Assembly: GCA_023390655.1 (NCBI GenBank)
Contig: JAEWCL010000001.1
Coordinates: 23,766-87,765, forward strand
DNA length: 64,000 nucleotides
Reading direction: 5' to 3'
DNA from: Bacillota bacterium
GTDB lineage: Bacteria > Bacillota > Clostridia > Christensenellales > CAG-138
Below are positions 10,863 to 16,495 of the stretch, one piece after another (position 1 is the first letter of the stretch; the number at the start of each line of letters is the position of its first letter). Below the pieces are notes generated by a model. That model did not search any database, was not told the origin of the DNA, and was given only the letters and a program-made list of their open reading frames with translations. The position numbers were made by a program, and so were the translations under genes.

Positions 10863-11972
10863 TTACAGCCCCTCCGCATCCGCAATCACCTTACATCCCA
10901 TTGCCTTCGCTTCCGCGTGAAGTATGCGGTTGCGAAGGTTGGTTTCGCCGTATTCGGTGAGGCAGTTCAGGACCGCGTCGCAGGCGCGGAGCTTTTCGAG
11001 AGCGCGCGCATAGGCGGCGTCCGAAATGGTATGGAAGCTCTTTTCGCTGATGATCTCATCTGCAAGGTCGTACGCCACCTGATAGTCAACGTCGTTTTCA
11101 TGGAGGATGCCCGTAATGAAGGGGATCCGCTTTTTTTGCAGCGTCCTGTAGACCTCAATGCCCGTACCGCCGCCCGCGATCACGAACAAACGCGGCGTAC
11201 CCGTGGGCCGTTTCATTTCCACGTTTCCGAAAAGCGGGTTATAGCTGCCGTCCGTAAGATCATACAATTCGTGAATGAGATCGCGACGGAAGATTTCCCG
11301 CGCATTGCCGTAGTGGGAAATGTACTCACCCTTGACGCACAGCACATCGTCCGAAACGCGCTGCGCCAGGCTTAGATCGTGGAGGGATAGTATTACCGCG
11401 ATGCCTCGTCGCGCCATGTCGCGCAGGATGTCGAGAAGCTCCAGTTCGTAGCGGATATCCAGGTACGAGGTCGGCTCGTCCAGCACGATGATCTCGGGCT
11501 GCTGGCAAATGGCCCGCGCAAGCAGCACCCGTTGGCGCTGTCCGTCGCTGATCTGCATAAAGTCGCGGTCCTTGAGGTCGGTCACGTTCACGAGCGCCAT
11601 GGCCTCGCAAACCGCGGCCCTGTCCGCATCGGAGAGGATGCCGAGCGTGCCCGTATAAGGATAGCGTCCCGCTTCCACGACATCCTCGCAGGTCATAAGC
11701 TCCGTGCGAAGCCGTTCGGTCAGCACCACGGATACGCGGCAGGCAAGGTCGCGCTCGGTCATATCGGAAATGGAGCGCCCGCCGATGTACACAGTGCCCG
11801 CAATGCGTTTGAGGTGCTTGGTGATGCTCCGTAAAATCGTGGACTTGCCCGAACCGTTGGGGCCGATGAGCGTCAAAATGCGTCCCTTCGGAAGCCGGAT
11901 ACCGATATCCTTGATGAGCGGCTTGCCGTTGTAACCCACGGTCAATTGTTGGGTGGAAAAGAAGTAATCCAT
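10863..11972 (-). CDS. FepC/BtuD-type ABC ATP-binding protein with an extra C-terminal domain of about 116 aa
   Basis: Start at MDYFF (GAGGGA RBS; TGAGCATG junction with the permease). Walker A GPNGSGKST, signature ISDGQRQRV, Walker B IIVLDEPTSYLD. This is followed by PRLFVIAGGGTGIEVY...GCKVIADAEGL. Confidence 0.85.
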   Translation of the reverse strand: MDYFFSTQQLTVGYNGKPLIKDIGIRLPKGRILTLIGPNGSGKSTILRSITKHLKRIAGTVYIGGRSISDMTERDLACRVSVVLTERLRTELMTCEDVVEAGRYPYTGTLGILSDADRAAVCEAMALVNVTDLKDRDFMQISDGQRQRVLLARAICQQPEIIVLDEPTSYLDIRYELELLDILRDMARRGIAVILSLHDLSLAQRVSDDVLCVKGEYISHYGNAREIFRRDLIHELYDLTDGSYNPLFGNVEMKRPTGTPRLFVIAGGGTGIEVYRTLQKKRIPFITGILHENDVDYQVAYDLADEIISEKSFHTISDAAYARALEKLRACDAVLNCLTEYGETNLRNRILHAEAKAMGCKVIADAEGL

Positions 11973-11974
11973 GC

Positions 11975-13000
11975 TCAATCCCTCGCACACTTTTTGAGCA
12001 TTACGGCGATGACGACGGGCGCGCCGAACACCGCGGTCACGGAGCTGATGCTAAGCTCCAGCGGGGAGAACAGCGTCCGCGCGATCAGGTCGCAGATGAG
12101 GCAGAAGATTGCACCGCCTAAGAAGCATACGGGGATTACAAGAAGCGGCTTTGAGGTTTTTAAAAGCGCTTTTACAAGATGCGGTACGGCGATGCCCACA
12201 AAGGAGATTGGCCCCGCAAAGGCGGTCACACAGGCGGAAAGTATACTTGAAAGCAGTATGAGCGCCACACGGAACGCTTTCACATTCACGCCCATACTCT
12301 TTGCGTAGCTCTCCCCAAGCTGGTACGCGCCGATGGGTTTGGAAAGGAAAAACACAAGAAGCGAAGTGATGAGAACGACCGCGGCCATCACCCGCACGTC
12401 GTTCCACGAAACGCCCGAAAAGCTGCCGCGCGACCAGTTGTGCAGGTTCACGATGCTCGCGTCGTCCGCAAACGTAATGATAAAATCCGTGATAGCAGAG
12501 AAGATGTAGCCGAGCATCACACCGCTGACAATGAGCATGGATGAGCGGCGTATCTTTTGTGAAACCAGTAGCACAAACCCCATGGAAAGCATCGCGCCCA
12601 CAAAGGCCGCGCCGATGAGCGCCACGGAACCAATGCTTTTGTTTGCGCTGAGCACCATAACCATCACGAGGGCCACAGTAAGCTTTGCGCCCGACGAAAT
12701 GCCGAGTACATACGGCCCCGCGATGGGGTTATTGAAAAACGTCTGCAGCAAAAAGCCCGCAAGCGCAAGCGCACCGCCTAAAAAAACGCCCGCGAGCATG
12801 CGCGGGAGCCGTATTTTATAGATCACGCTTGTGAGCGTATCGTTGCCTCCACGCCCGAGCAGGGTGTTGAGGGTATCCGAAACGGACGCCTGCACGCTGC
12901 CCAGCATCACGTTGAGGCATATCAAAATGAAAAACGTGGCGAGCAGCGCGAACAAAACGATCCAGAATCGCACACGGCGTTTGTTTTCGGTGCCTTCCAT
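11975..13000 (-). CDS. FecCD/BtuC-family ABC permease
   Basis: 341 aa polytopic protein with FecCD-like segments RLPRMLAGVFLGGALALAGFLLQ and GPISFVGIAVPHL. Confidence 0.85.
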   Translation of the reverse strand: MEGTENKRRVRFWIVLFALLATFFILICLNVMLGSVQASVSDTLNTLLGRGGNDTLTSVIYKIRLPRMLAGVFLGGALALAGFLLQTFFNNPIAGPYVLGISSGAKLTVALVMVMVLSANKSIGSVALIGAAFVGAMLSMGFVLLVSQKIRRSSMLIVSGVMLGYIFSAITDFIITFADDASIVNLHNWSRGSFSGVSWNDVRVMAAVVLITSLLVFFLSKPIGAYQLGESYAKSMGVNVKAFRVALILLSSILSACVTAFAGPISFVGIAVPHLVKALLKTSKPLLVIPVCFLGGAIFCLICDLIARTLFSPLELSISSVTAVFGAPVVIAVMLKKCARD

Positions 13001-13024
13001 GACGTTCCTTTCTTTATGGATTCT

Positions 13025-15172: not shown

Positions 15173-15255
15173 AGAACGTAATACCCTCTTTCAAAATACA
15201 GCTTTCCGCGCGCGCCAAAGAAATGGTGCGCGCGGAAAGCATAGCGGTGTTATTC

Positions 15256-16122
15256 TTATTTACCCATGGCCGCGGCAGCGTGCTCCACGAACATCTGCTG
15301 GATCGCTGTATTCTGGCCCAAGCCTTTCAGGACGCATTCCACCTCAAAGCCTGCGGCCTCGAAAACGGACTTCCAAGAATCCTCCTCATCGCCCGCCATG
15401 TCGTTGTTGGCATGGTCGCCCGCAACGATCATCAGCGGCAGAAGCACCACCTTTTTAGCGCCGCTCGCCTGCACAGAGGCCAGAACTTCCTCTACGGTCG
15501 GCTCGGCTTCCACCGTGCCGATAAAGTAGTTATCCTGCCCCGCATCGGTGAGCTTCTGCTGGAGCTTCGCGTAGGTGGCGTTGGCGTTATGTTCGGTGCC
15601 GTGGCCCATAAACACGATGGCCGTGCCATCCGCGTCGTAAGAAGCGGTGTCCGCCGTAATGGCGGAAACGACCTTGTCATAATCCGCATCTGAAATCAGG
15701 AGCGGCTCGCTGGTTTTGAAGCTCTTGAACTTGTCCTTATAGGGCGTAACTTCGGCGATCACATCATCGTACTCGTAGCCGCTCATCACATGGGTGGGCT
15801 GGATAACGACTTCCTTTACGCCGTCCGCAACAAGCCGATCCATGGCCTGGGTCACATTATCGATCTCGAGGTTATCGCGCTCCTTGAGCTTGTCGATAAT
15901 GATCTGGCTCGTAAAGGCGCGGCGCACCTCATATTCTGGGTAGGCGGCCTGGAGCACGTTTTCAATGGCGCCTATGGTGATGTCGCGGCTGTCATTATAG
16001 CTCGTACCGAAGCTGACGACCAACAGCACGGGTTTTGCGGCAGGTTTTGCCGCGCAGCCTGCCAATACGGGCATTACGAACGCAAGCGCCAGAATGAGGG
16101 CAAGGGTTTTGAGGTGTTTCAT
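15256..16122 (-). CDS. CbiK-type (sirohydrochlorin cobaltochelatase fold) protein carrying a lipoprotein signal, hence extracytoplasmic
   Basis: MKHLKTLALILALAFVMPVLAGC has a canonical LAGC lipobox. CbiK body LLVVSFGTSYNDSR, IQPTHVMSGYEYDDV, FMGHGTEHNAN. Confidence 0.8.
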   Translation of the reverse strand: MKHLKTLALILALAFVMPVLAGCAAKPAAKPVLLVVSFGTSYNDSRDITIGAIENVLQAAYPEYEVRRAFTSQIIIDKLKERDNLEIDNVTQAMDRLVADGVKEVVIQPTHVMSGYEYDDVIAEVTPYKDKFKSFKTSEPLLISDADYDKVVSAITADTASYDADGTAIVFMGHGTEHNANATYAKLQQKLTDAGQDNYFIGTVEAEPTVEEVLASVQASGAKKVVLLPLMIVAGDHANNDMAGDEEDSWKSVFEAAGFEVECVLKGLGQNTAIQQMFVEHAAAAMGK

Positions 16123-16188
16123 TTGTTCGTTTCCTCCATTTTATTTATTTGCCATCGTCCACGCGGGAACCGCGCATGGACAGACACA

Positions 16189-16495
16189 ACAAAAAAACCG
16201 TTCGCACTCTGCGAACGGCATAAAAGGCACAACAAACATGGAAGATACGCCAAAGGCGATCGTTCCGATATCCATTGCTCCGGAGGTCCGCAGAGCCGAA
16301 TATGCCGCAAACGCGGCAAGGATACAGGCAAGTATTCTGGCTTATCGCCTGCGCCTGAAAATGGGGCGCGTGGTTTTAAGCGCCTTCCCAAGGGAGTTCC
16401 CTCAGTGACATATGCTTAAAACCTGCGGCGAATCACAGCAACGGCCTTGCGCGGGAGTTTCACCCGGCTTCCATGACCTGTTCCCGATATTCATT
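16189..16495 (-). promoter_or_regulatory. cobalamin riboswitch (full-length type) with intrinsic terminator
   Basis: Minus-strand read: ATCGGGAACAGGTCATGGAAGCCGGGTGAAACTCCCGCGCAAGGCC ... GTCACTGAGGGAACTCCCTTGGGAAGGCG ... B12 box AAGCCAGAATACTTGCC. Then CCGTTCGCA-gag-TGCGAACGG followed by T7 (16189-16219). GGAGGA RBS and the ATG at 16122 follow. Confidence 0.8.

Follow-up and report, generated by a model that had tools for sequence, protein, structure and literature searches.

A stretch of 64,000 nucleotides (nt) from contig JAEWCL010000001.1 of a Christensenellales bacterium, here called the window, carries a cobalamin riboswitch ahead of six minus-strand genes that encode an exported chelatase homologue of the CbiK family, two small surface proteins (g2 and g3), and the binding lipoprotein, permease and ATPase of an ATP-binding cassette (ABC) importer. 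We conclude that this cassette probably takes up a tetrapyrrole of the cobalamin pathway by way of a relay on the cell surface, and that it is repressed by vitamin B12. We further propose, tentatively and with slightly less than even confidence, that its cargo is an early or incomplete cobalt tetrapyrrole that re-enters the neighbouring cbi (corrin-ring) pathway. The cassette is best described as a surface relay of NEAT-fold proteins that includes an exported chelatase homologue and belongs to the cobalamin regulon of monoderms. Judged by family scores it appears to be neither a CbiK equivalog nor a curated BtuFCD system; by analogy, it would work like the Isd/Shp relay and the Iht locus and be regulated like BtuFCD.

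A clear cobalamin riboswitch had been placed directly upstream of these genes in a first-pass annotation made from the letters of the window, and this reading held. Rfam matched a full-length cobalamin aptamer (RF00174) on the minus strand at 16310-16496, scoring 57.4 bits where the gathering threshold is 31.5 (E 1.3e-11) and covering the whole model (positions 1-189 of 189), and the motifs read in the leader, GGGAAC, GGGTGAAACTCCC, CACTG, GGGAAGGCG and the B12 box AGCCAGAATACTTGCC, are all found in the window sequence. The expression platform ends in an intrinsic terminator (16190-16219, minus strand), a hairpin GCCGTTCGCAgagTGCGAACGGT at 16197-16219 with a 10-bp stem that includes six G-C pairs, a 3-nt loop and seven T, which lies 68 nt from the start codon of the cbiK-like gene. 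Just upstream of the aptamer, a scan for promoter consensus alone found a promoter-like site, TTGACA-18 nt-TATGCT with an upstream TG extension (16506-16535, minus strand; 10 of 12 consensus matches). Promoter-like site, aptamer and T7 terminator are on one strand and follow one another in this order ahead of the first cassette gene.

We also considered relatives of the cassette. A g2 profile scan of one genome per species matched at least 546 stretches, from which 80 related loci were kept and viewed with flanks of up to 10 kb; some counts below cover 82 loci and are given as such. Rfam was run on 28 related loci. In 19 of them a same-strand RF00174 match immediately upstream exceeds the gathering score, and a further six, from Coriobacteriia, one Christensenellaceae and one Peptococcaceae locus, have a short variant element with the sequence GGGAAnCAGGTGnGAATCCTGnGCAAGGGACATTACTGT...AGCCAG (plus strand; L026:6533-6652, L033:6558-6668, L047:5321-5436, L011:1845-1975 and L025:6740-6868). 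With the cobalamin models the variant scores 16-30 bits, too low to pass the Rfam gathering scores, but it shows compensatory changes in 8 of 17 predicted pairs. Current models may be missing a short cobalamin-riboswitch-like class. The view that Coriobacteriia cassettes have no riboswitch, based on the lack of a gathering-score match, was dropped when this conserved element with its compensatory changes was found. The remaining three loci comprise one inside a cbi operon, one without upstream sequence and one that is unexplained. When a motif scan was combined with Rfam, 68 of the 70 loci for which 450 nt or more of upstream sequence was available showed a riboswitch or its core motif, so that the link to cobalamin sensing belongs to the cassette and not to the window alone. 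The tie to the cobalamin economy, for which the first-pass annotation had proposed a co-occurrence count, is thereby borne out. In one related Bacillota locus a skipping-rope RNA (RF02924, 74.1 bits; L013:5273-5354, minus strand) stands between two cobalamin riboswitches.

The first gene behind the riboswitch (15256-16122, minus strand) encodes a 288-aa class II chelatase lipoprotein of the CbiK family (PF06180, E 2.3e-89, 299.7 bits against a cut-off of 26.2), with the signal MKHLKTLALILALAFVMPVLAGC and the lipobox VLAGC; the earlier description of a CbiK-fold protein with a canonical LAGC lipobox was accurate. Its best match among PDB sequences is CbiK of Salmonella enterica (1qgo, E 2e-56), a sirohydrochlorin cobaltochelatase, followed by FetB/IhtB of Porphyromonas gingivalis (9b86, E 1.7e-47) and the periplasmic CbiK of Desulfovibrio vulgaris (2xvx, E 4.9e-41). 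All catalytic residues are common to the Salmonella enzyme and the window protein: the metal-binding and catalytic H145, E175 and H207 of the cobaltochelatase are present, as are F10, E89 and D211 (Salmonella numbering), and the same six residues are invariant in 63 of 63 distinct exported CbiK orthologues from the loci. The Salmonella protein is, however, a cytoplasmic enzyme, whereas the window protein is a lipoprotein that scores 273.7 bits against the CbiK equivalog model NF047852, below its cut-off of 400. The Clostridia orthologues examined have Sec-type lipoprotein signals in place of the cytoplasmic location expected of CbiK. In Coriobacteriia the exported CbiK has a twin-arginine-type (Tat-type) motif, SRRxFMGAAA, followed by a lipobox (L026:6767-6860; likewise L047, L046 and L033), and because of this signal the protein may leave the cell folded, possibly with bound ligand. 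When the flanks of the loci were searched by tblastn with the exported CbiK, none contained an additional copy without an export signal; two loci encode tandem double-CbiK proteins. The Desulfovibrio protein, CbiKP, is likewise an exported CbiK paralogue that has kept its active site; it binds heme and adjoins an ABC transporter. It differs from the window protein in being soluble and periplasmic, and no NEAT-fold partners are known for it.

The second and third genes encode g2 (14690-15172, minus strand), a 160-aa lipoprotein with the lipobox LLCAC, Cys21 and a PT-rich linker, and g3 (14179-14685, minus strand), 168 aa long with a signal peptide, a C-terminal membrane helix and the basic tail HRGKRANKS. 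They are distant paralogues (BLASTP E 4e-6, 25% identity), in agreement with the first reading of the window, which had also called them Shp/NEAT-like and had recommended a search with the NEAT model PF05031 and a Foldseek comparison with Shp and Isd structures. The first of these checks went against the name and the second in its favor. Neither protein has a family in Pfam or NCBIfam; g2 does not match PF05031, and g3 matches it with E 0.067 and 14.1 bits, below the Pfam gathering score of 32.8, while a relative of g3, P0267, nearly attains the threshold with 31.7 bits. Two NCBIfam matches of g2 and g3 at E 0.04 were rejected, as they covered only the signal peptide and linker. Hundreds of homologues exist for each protein, and alignments of 61 homologues for g2 and 57 for g3 were used to derive motifs and AlphaFold2 models. 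Invariant motifs are SSSSMF, MSGxGYGKLYMGTG and AAWSIKKExWYDRVLVF in g2 and SGGSGRAS, WSSPxYEYM and AMSxPH114xxxY118 in g3, where H114 and Y118 are both invariant. The models have a mean predicted local distance difference test score (pLDDT) of 88.6 for g2 and 85.6 for g3, with the beta domain at residues ~47-148 and ~28-129, respectively. In Foldseek searches of the PDB, the best 39 matches of the g3 model are all NEAT domains (IsdX1, E 1.8e-5, template-modelling score 0.72 normalised to the target), and the top matches of the g2 model are IsdX1 (2.9e-4), Hbp2 and Shp; no fold other than NEAT or Shp occurs among the significant matches of either. Thus g2 and g3 are predicted to be divergent NEAT-fold proteins, that is, eight-stranded beta-sandwiches. 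The assignment rests on the predicted structures, since profile searches against PDB sequences gave a marginal IsdX1 match for the g3 family (E 0.06), which aligns the N-terminal strand and the 'lip' (LADGxYT...ESPA, with the lip six residues shorter), and noise only for the g2 family.

The YxxxY motif that ligates heme iron on the last strand is not in the g2 or g3 alignments; g3 probably has its invariant HxxxY on that strand, judging from strand topology and a weak Pfam alignment, and g2 has an invariant W140-Y141-D142-R143. No LPXTG sortase signal is present, g2 being a lipoprotein and g3 having a C-terminal helix and basic tail in a Shp-like topology. By Pfam threshold, YxxxY motif and sortase anchoring, the two proteins therefore appear to fall outside the NEAT family as defined by sequence and motif, and the name Shp/NEAT-like stands for the fold but not for these three features. 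An exhaustive profile search put the g3 family at 1682 representatives at 50% identity. That search also returned multi-repeat proteins of up to 1,605 residues; six of these (P0242, P0244, P0249, P0251, P0256 and P0299; 880-1605 aa) have four to five g3-like repeats and almost no other recognisable domains, an arrangement reminiscent of multi-NEAT proteins such as hemophores. In another protein, P0287, a g3-like domain is joined to a Cthe_2159 carbohydrate-binding-like domain.

The last three genes form the transporter. Gene 4 (13025-14173, minus strand) encodes a class-III (cluster A-II) substrate-binding lipoprotein of 382 aa, counted from the ATG at 14173 (Peripla_BP_2, E 1.7e-32; lipobox FTAGC), gene 5 (11975-13000, minus strand) a FecCD/BtuC-type permease of a type II ABC importer, 341 aa (PF01032, E 2.3e-80), and gene 6 (10863-11990, minus strand) an ABC ATPase (ABC_tran) with an extra C-terminal domain of ~120 aa. 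The ATPase starts at the GTG at 11990 or at an ATG at 11972, as called for the identical gene in locus L001. On that gene and on orthologues the extra domain is recorded as PF27219 MJ0874; searched in isolation, it gave only a weak Pfam match to Nuc_deoxyrib_tr (E 0.028). The six genes are spaced by short gaps or overlaps, and the end of the cassette faces a convergent gene. In its families, export signals and gene order, the parts list drawn up in the first-pass annotation was correct. The best NCBIfam match of the permease is BtuC, with 198 bits against a cut-off of 334; residues 12-343 of the ATPase match positions 5-345 of 402 of PRK09536, 'corrinoid ABC transporter ATPase', with 194 bits against 537, a profile of archaeal corrinoid-transporter ATPases that has the extra domain in common with the window protein; and the sole NCBIfam match of the binding protein is IsdE (E 7.5e-5). 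Against PDB sequences the best match of the binding protein is Lmo2184 (7.4e-4 with the single sequence, 1.4e-7 with a 21-sequence profile); neither search found a close match to a solved BtuF or heme-binding protein, and the other matches are uncharacterised or siderophore proteins only. With matches of this kind the binding protein does not discriminate between BtuF and heme binders.

The cassette is conserved as a unit. When the six window proteins were searched with tblastn, the six genes were found in one order in nearly all of the 80 loci from other species, which argues that the arrangement is not due to chance. Carriers are found among Clostridia (Oscillospiraceae, Anaerotruncus, Ruminococcus, Roseburia, Christensenellales and Peptococcaceae) and Coriobacteriia (Collinsella aerofaciens and Ellagibacter). 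Some Ruminococcus and Roseburia have a rotated order, g3-binding protein-permease-ATPase-CbiK-g2; in one such locus (L020:6229-6981, plus strand) the ATPase reading frame is only ~250 aa long and the extra C-terminal domain is apparently absent. Moreover, neighbours in the gene order are fused in nature. CbiK and g2 form a single 437-aa lipoprotein in Faecalibacterium (L083:8686-9999); g2 and g3 are joined in proteins of ~287 aa from metagenome-assembled genomes (P0029, P0059, P0085, P0120 and P0149); and g3 is joined to the binding protein in a 523-aa lipoprotein of Collinsella (L026:8377-9948), and the same fusion occurs in six of a sample of ten long family members. A Christensenellales locus encodes four g2-like repeats plus a g3 domain. 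A chain of fusions that follows the gene order is what one would expect if the proteins hand a ligand from one to the next as far as the binding protein, and the idea of a relay, already raised in the first-pass annotation, gains support from it. Together with the NEAT folds, the multi-repeat versions and the lipoprotein, signal and anchor features of all outer parts, the fusions argue for a relay on the surface.

The genomic company of the cassette points to the corrin pathway. In the window, the first riboswitch stands back to back with another cobalamin riboswitch, this one of the AdoCbl-II class (RF01689; 16590-16668, plus strand; 37.3 bits, gathering score 36.5), which heads a divergent B12 biosynthesis operon (16755-30658, plus strand) with the genes cbiD-cbiF-cbiG-cbiH-cbiJ-cbiET-cbiA-cobT-cobU-cobS-cobC-cbiB-cobD-cobQ-cbiC. 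Its promoter-like site (16559-16588, plus strand; consensus scan) is back to back with that of the cassette, and its riboswitch has a terminator of its own (16727-16751, plus strand). The divergent operon contains neither a chelatase nor cbiL, and a scan of the 64-kb window found no hem, cbiL or cbiMNQO genes in the rest of it. Of 82 loci, 56 have cbi corrin-ring genes no more than 8 kb from the cassette. In Faecalibacterium, the riboswitch, CbiK~g2 fusion, g3, binding protein, permease, ATPase, cbiA, cbiC, cbiD, cbiF, cbiG, cbiH and cbiJ are all on one strand, and in three further loci (L018, L022 and L052) the cassette heads a similar co-directional block of cbi genes. In L015, cbiL (TIGR01467, 193.5 bits against 163.25; L015:5415-6116, plus strand), the product of which acts on cobalt-factor II, starts 7 nt after the ATPase gene, and some Collinsella clusters have cbiL between cbiG and cbiD. 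The cobalt transporter genes cbiMNQO were seen neither in the window nor in the flanks examined.

Shelton et al. (2019) defined 'tetrapyrrole precursor salvagers', bacteria for which the uptake route was left open (PMC6461909). Their Supplementary Table 10 lists C. aerofaciens (ATCC 25986), C. tanakaei and Collinsella sp., and Faecalibacterium prausnitzii A2-165 and KLE1255, as precorrin-2 salvagers; these three Collinsella and two F. prausnitzii genomes are without every step to precorrin-2 and have kept the rest of the pathway, and the table also has many Ruminococcaceae and Lachnospiraceae and one further Coriobacteriia genome (PMC6461909). In our set, C. aerofaciens strains (L026, L063, L072 and L074) and Faecalibacterium contigs (L083 and L084) carry the cassette. 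The first-pass annotation had taken corrinoids to be the economy that the regulatory RNA senses. Its link to cobalamin stands, but it had overlooked the embedding among cbi genes, the intact chelatase site and the precorrin-2 salvagers among the carriers; taken together, the cbi embedding, the complete active site and the salvager genera favor pathway intermediates at least as strongly as finished corrinoids.

These observations provide the basis for a model of the cassette. We predict that when adenosylcobalamin (AdoCbl) is scarce the leader is read through the terminator and the six proteins are made. Three of them, the CbiK-like lipoprotein, the g2 lipoprotein and the helix-anchored g3, would be tethered outside the membrane, where the ligand would be captured by the CbiK-like protein and handed to g2, then to g3 and finally to the class-III binding lipoprotein; the BtuCD/FecCD-type ABC importer would then take it into the cell, and the extra domain of the ATPase may be regulatory. 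Candidates for the cargo are cobalt-sirohydrochlorin, incomplete corrinoids and sirohydrochlorin, into which the intact chelatase might insert Co2+ at the surface; sirohydrochlorin is the air-stable oxidised form of precorrin-2. An early cobalt tetrapyrrole is suggested because the presumed first receptor is homologous, with its active site intact, to the enzyme of that entry to the pathway, because the cassette is contiguous and co-oriented with ring-processing genes, once with cbiL, because carrier lineages need such an input, and because the NEAT fold is sized for a porphyrin-like macrocycle. The cassette would then be the missing uptake route of the tetrapyrrole precursor salvagers. A more far-reaching version, which we consider unlikely, is that the carriers have no cobaltochelatase for the pathway other than the exported CbiK-like lipoprotein, so that B12 synthesis starts at the cell surface: scavenged sirohydrochlorin would be metalated with Co2+ outside the cell, and cobalt-sirohydrochlorin would be relayed via the two NEAT-fold proteins to the ABC importer and thence to CbiL. 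This would apply to Faecalibacterium, Collinsella and many gut Clostridia and Coriobacteriia, and alike, through Iht, to P. gingivalis.

Several points weigh against import of an early cobalt tetrapyrrole. The permease has BtuC as its best curated match and the ATPase is similar to one for corrinoids in archaea, with which finished cobamides fit equally well. The closest exported relative with a structure, 9b86, is deposited as 'heme-binding protein FetB', and NEAT pockets are not known for ligands other than heme. The correspondence of H114xxxY118 in g3 to the YxxxY position is suggested by strand topology and the weak Pfam alignment. Several cassettes are stand-alone operons amid unrelated genes. 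In Candidatus Merdiplasma a cobA-hemD fusion is encoded 1.7 kb downstream of the cassette (L053:7184-8725, plus strand), so precorrin-2 auxotrophy does not apply to this carrier; on this account we dropped the idea that the cassette and auxotrophy for precorrin-2 go strictly together. The proposal also presupposes that sirohydrochlorin-type compounds are present in the gut.

Among other explanations, the one that survives best, though it is in our judgment rather doubtful, is capture and import of finished cobamides or cobinamide, as the first-pass annotation had it. The CbiK-like and NEAT-fold proteins would then be high-affinity corrinoid binders, functional analogues of BtuG, BtuH and BtuJ of Bacteroides, and would feed an importer of the BtuFCD type, with the chelatase residues doing no more than ligating the corrin cobalt. 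Importers of the FecCD type under B12-riboswitch control usually import cobamides (PMC2667541), the riboswitch-controlled gene beside ihtB in P. gingivalis was named btuB by Hirano et al. (PMC3422912), and the profile matches of permease and ATPase, the latter with its C-terminal domain, as well as the existence of stand-alone cassettes, fit this explanation. The cassette does resemble BtuFCD (E. coli BtuCD-F and riboswitch-controlled homologues) in having a type II ABC importer under B12-riboswitch control with BtuC as the best permease match; however, its BtuC and BtuD scores stay under the cut-offs, no BtuF is found among the PDB matches of its binding protein, and it has three extra surface proteins and an extra ATPase domain. 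A multiprotein extracellular relay for cobamides exists in Bacteroides thetaiotaomicron, where BtuB works with BtuG, BtuH, BtuJ and BtuK, and here the concept of riboswitch-controlled surface lipoproteins that hand a corrinoid to a transporter is the same; the folds are nevertheless unrelated, the setting is an outer membrane, no chelatase homologue takes part and the hosts are cobamide auxotrophs. What decides us against finished cobamides as the likelier cargo is what they leave unexplained, namely the invariance of all active-site residues of sirohydrochlorin chelatase, the frequent joining of the cassette to operons for corrin-ring enzymes and its presence in taxa that have ring-synthesis genes but are unable to make precorrin-2. 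In addition, PDB sequence searches with the binding protein detected no similarity to solved BtuF structures, and a NEAT-sized pocket would seem small for a complete cobamide.

Acquisition of cobalt itself is improbable. The surface chelatase would here load Co2+ into a chelator, either an exported tetrapyrrole made by the cell or another cobalt chelate, and the importer would bring the cobalt in for B12 synthesis, so that the cassette would replace the CbiMNQO of other cbi operons. Its placement in cbi operons, where cobalt transporters often sit, the lack of cbiMNQO in the window and flanks examined, and the intact metal-binding residues of the exported CbiK are in line with this, as are the common control of cobalt uptake by B12 riboswitches (PMC7689651) and the Tat-type signal of the Coriobacteriia CbiK, which could let the protein leave the cell folded with its ligand bound. 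However, the cassette contains no exporter and no genes for chelator synthesis, one exported tetrapyrrole would be needed per cobalt ion, the substrates of type II importers that work with class-III binding proteins are organic chelates and not free ions, and Tat use is common in Actinobacteria with or without a bound cofactor.

Heme or iron acquisition, as traditionally proposed for the Iht locus of P. gingivalis, is less probable still: the CbiK-like protein would bind heme or strip iron from it and the NEAT-fold proteins would relay heme as Isd and Shp do, with heme or iron being imported, but although the fold matches of g2 and g3 are heme-binding NEAT and Shp domains, 9b86 is deposited as heme-binding FetB, the periplasmic CbiK 2xvx is the third-best sequence match, IsdE is the one NCBIfam match of the binding protein and the BtuS proteins of B. 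fragilis, which are CobN-like, take part in the use of heme-iron (PMC6460266), cobalamin riboswitches control essentially all loci, cassettes are embedded in cbi operons, the heme-ligating YxxxY is absent from the g2 and g3 alignments, and a B. fragilis cbiK mutant used heme-iron normally (PMC6460266). DuBois and co-workers also take riboswitch-bearing hmu-like operons as cobalamin-related (PMC10100974). As for regulation by iron or heme, the leader of the cassette is a cobalamin riboswitch; no search for a Fur box was made.

The heme relays nevertheless offer instructive comparisons. The first-pass annotation held that the layout copies them, which is true of the NEAT-fold proteins, the class-III binding protein and the FecCD importer but not of sortase anchoring, YxxxY or control by iron or heme. 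The Isd NEAT proteins (IsdX1, IsdA/B/C/H and Hbp2) and Shp-HtsABC share with the cassette NEAT beta-sandwich surface proteins that also occur in multi-domain versions and are encoded beside a class-III binding lipoprotein and a FecCD-type importer, and Shp, like g3, has a signal peptide and a C-terminal membrane helix. The cassette differs from them in its sub-threshold Pfam NEAT scores, in lacking YxxxY and, unlike the Isd type, LPXTG, in having a cobalamin riboswitch in place of iron regulation and an exported chelatase homologue in first position, and in its location at B12 clusters.

The Iht locus (ihtA-E; IhtB is FetB, PG0669/PGN_0705, PDB 9b86) is the nearer comparator. It too combines a CbiK-like surface lipoprotein with a binding lipoprotein, permease and ATPase, and a cobalamin riboswitch lies close by; the resemblance to IhtB and IhtCDE noted in the first-pass annotation is confirmed. 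That annotation had, however, used IhtB as a heme system to set against a corrinoid-sensing window, and this contrast is false: an AdoCbl-responsive riboswitch was demonstrated experimentally directly upstream of PGN_0704, the btuB of Hirano et al. (PMC3422912), ihtB is the adjoining PGN_0705 (PMC10913741), and iht transcription does not respond to starvation for iron or heme (PMC12094164). With a riboswitch at the gene next to ihtB, the Iht locus is itself in the B12 regulon. Its host matches as well, as P. gingivalis is without precorrin-2 synthesis and has kept the corrin pathway, according to Shelton et al. (PMC6461909). The differences are that P. gingivalis is a diderm and has the TonB-dependent receptor IhtA in place of the two NEAT-fold proteins of the window, that Iht is not known inside cbi operons, that it is treated in the literature as an iron or heme system, and that the window CbiK-like protein matches CbiK of Salmonella better (194 bits) than it does FetB (165 bits). 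The window cassette has no TonB-dependent receptor of the IhtA type, its carriers being Clostridia and Coriobacteriia.

A related suggestion has been made for Bacteroides: a passage of Rocha et al., citing Rodionov 2003, has the chelatase homologues in B12-regulated transport operons of Bacteroides predicted for 'salvage of metalloporphyrins' (PMC6460266). Our literature searches turned up no account of a B12 regulon that includes NEAT-fold proteins, nor of a riboswitch-controlled CbiK lipoprotein system. A September 2026 review of the Bacteroides relay calls Gram-positive extracellular cobamide capture 'entirely uncharacterized' (PMC13616437), which agrees with the earlier remark that no Gram-positive system of this kind had been described.

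Two further features of the window lie outside the cassette. On the plus strand at ~5000-10753, convergent with the cassette and adjoining it, are genes for a glycyl-radical enzyme, a radical-SAM (S-adenosylmethionine) activase, a Zn-dependent alcohol dehydrogenase and a PfkB-family kinase, which look like an unrelated cluster for sugar or diol catabolism. Elsewhere, a Na+ riboswitch (RF03071, 54.6 bits; 51731-51782, minus strand) lies ~180 nt upstream of rnfC (50211-51551), beyond which is rnfD (49151-50158); its position ahead of rnfC and rnfD suggests sodium-responsive control of the Rnf complex.

The route that feeds the salvagers has been open since 2019, and for P. gingivalis since 2000, and the cassette is a concrete, testable candidate for it. 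Widespread as it is in key gut commensals, it turns both salvager feeding and the role of exported CbiK into directly testable questions. Two large families without annotation, g2 and g3, gain a context, and a function if our proposal is correct; g3 alone has ~1,700 representatives at 50% identity. The 'iron-heme transport' locus Iht of P. gingivalis is recast as part of the B12 regulon. If the proposal is true, no earlier system for surface capture in the cobalamin economy would be on record from Gram-positives, and the cassette would extend the NEAT fold beyond heme to its first non-heme ligand. Should the chelatase act outside the cell, this would be a case of extracytoplasmic biosynthetic metal insertion and would bear on how B12 receives the correct metal; and if B12 synthesis does start at the surface, the missing transporter of the precorrin-2 salvagers would be identified, the 'enigma' of the orphan corrin pathway of P. 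gingivalis, posed in 2000, would be explained and a function would be given to periplasmic and surface CbiK paralogues. Finally, many abundant gut commensals, F. prausnitzii and C. aerofaciens among them, have kept most of the B12 pathway but are unable to synthesise the ring precursor, and the cargo of the relay would be a new currency of cross-feeding in the gut.

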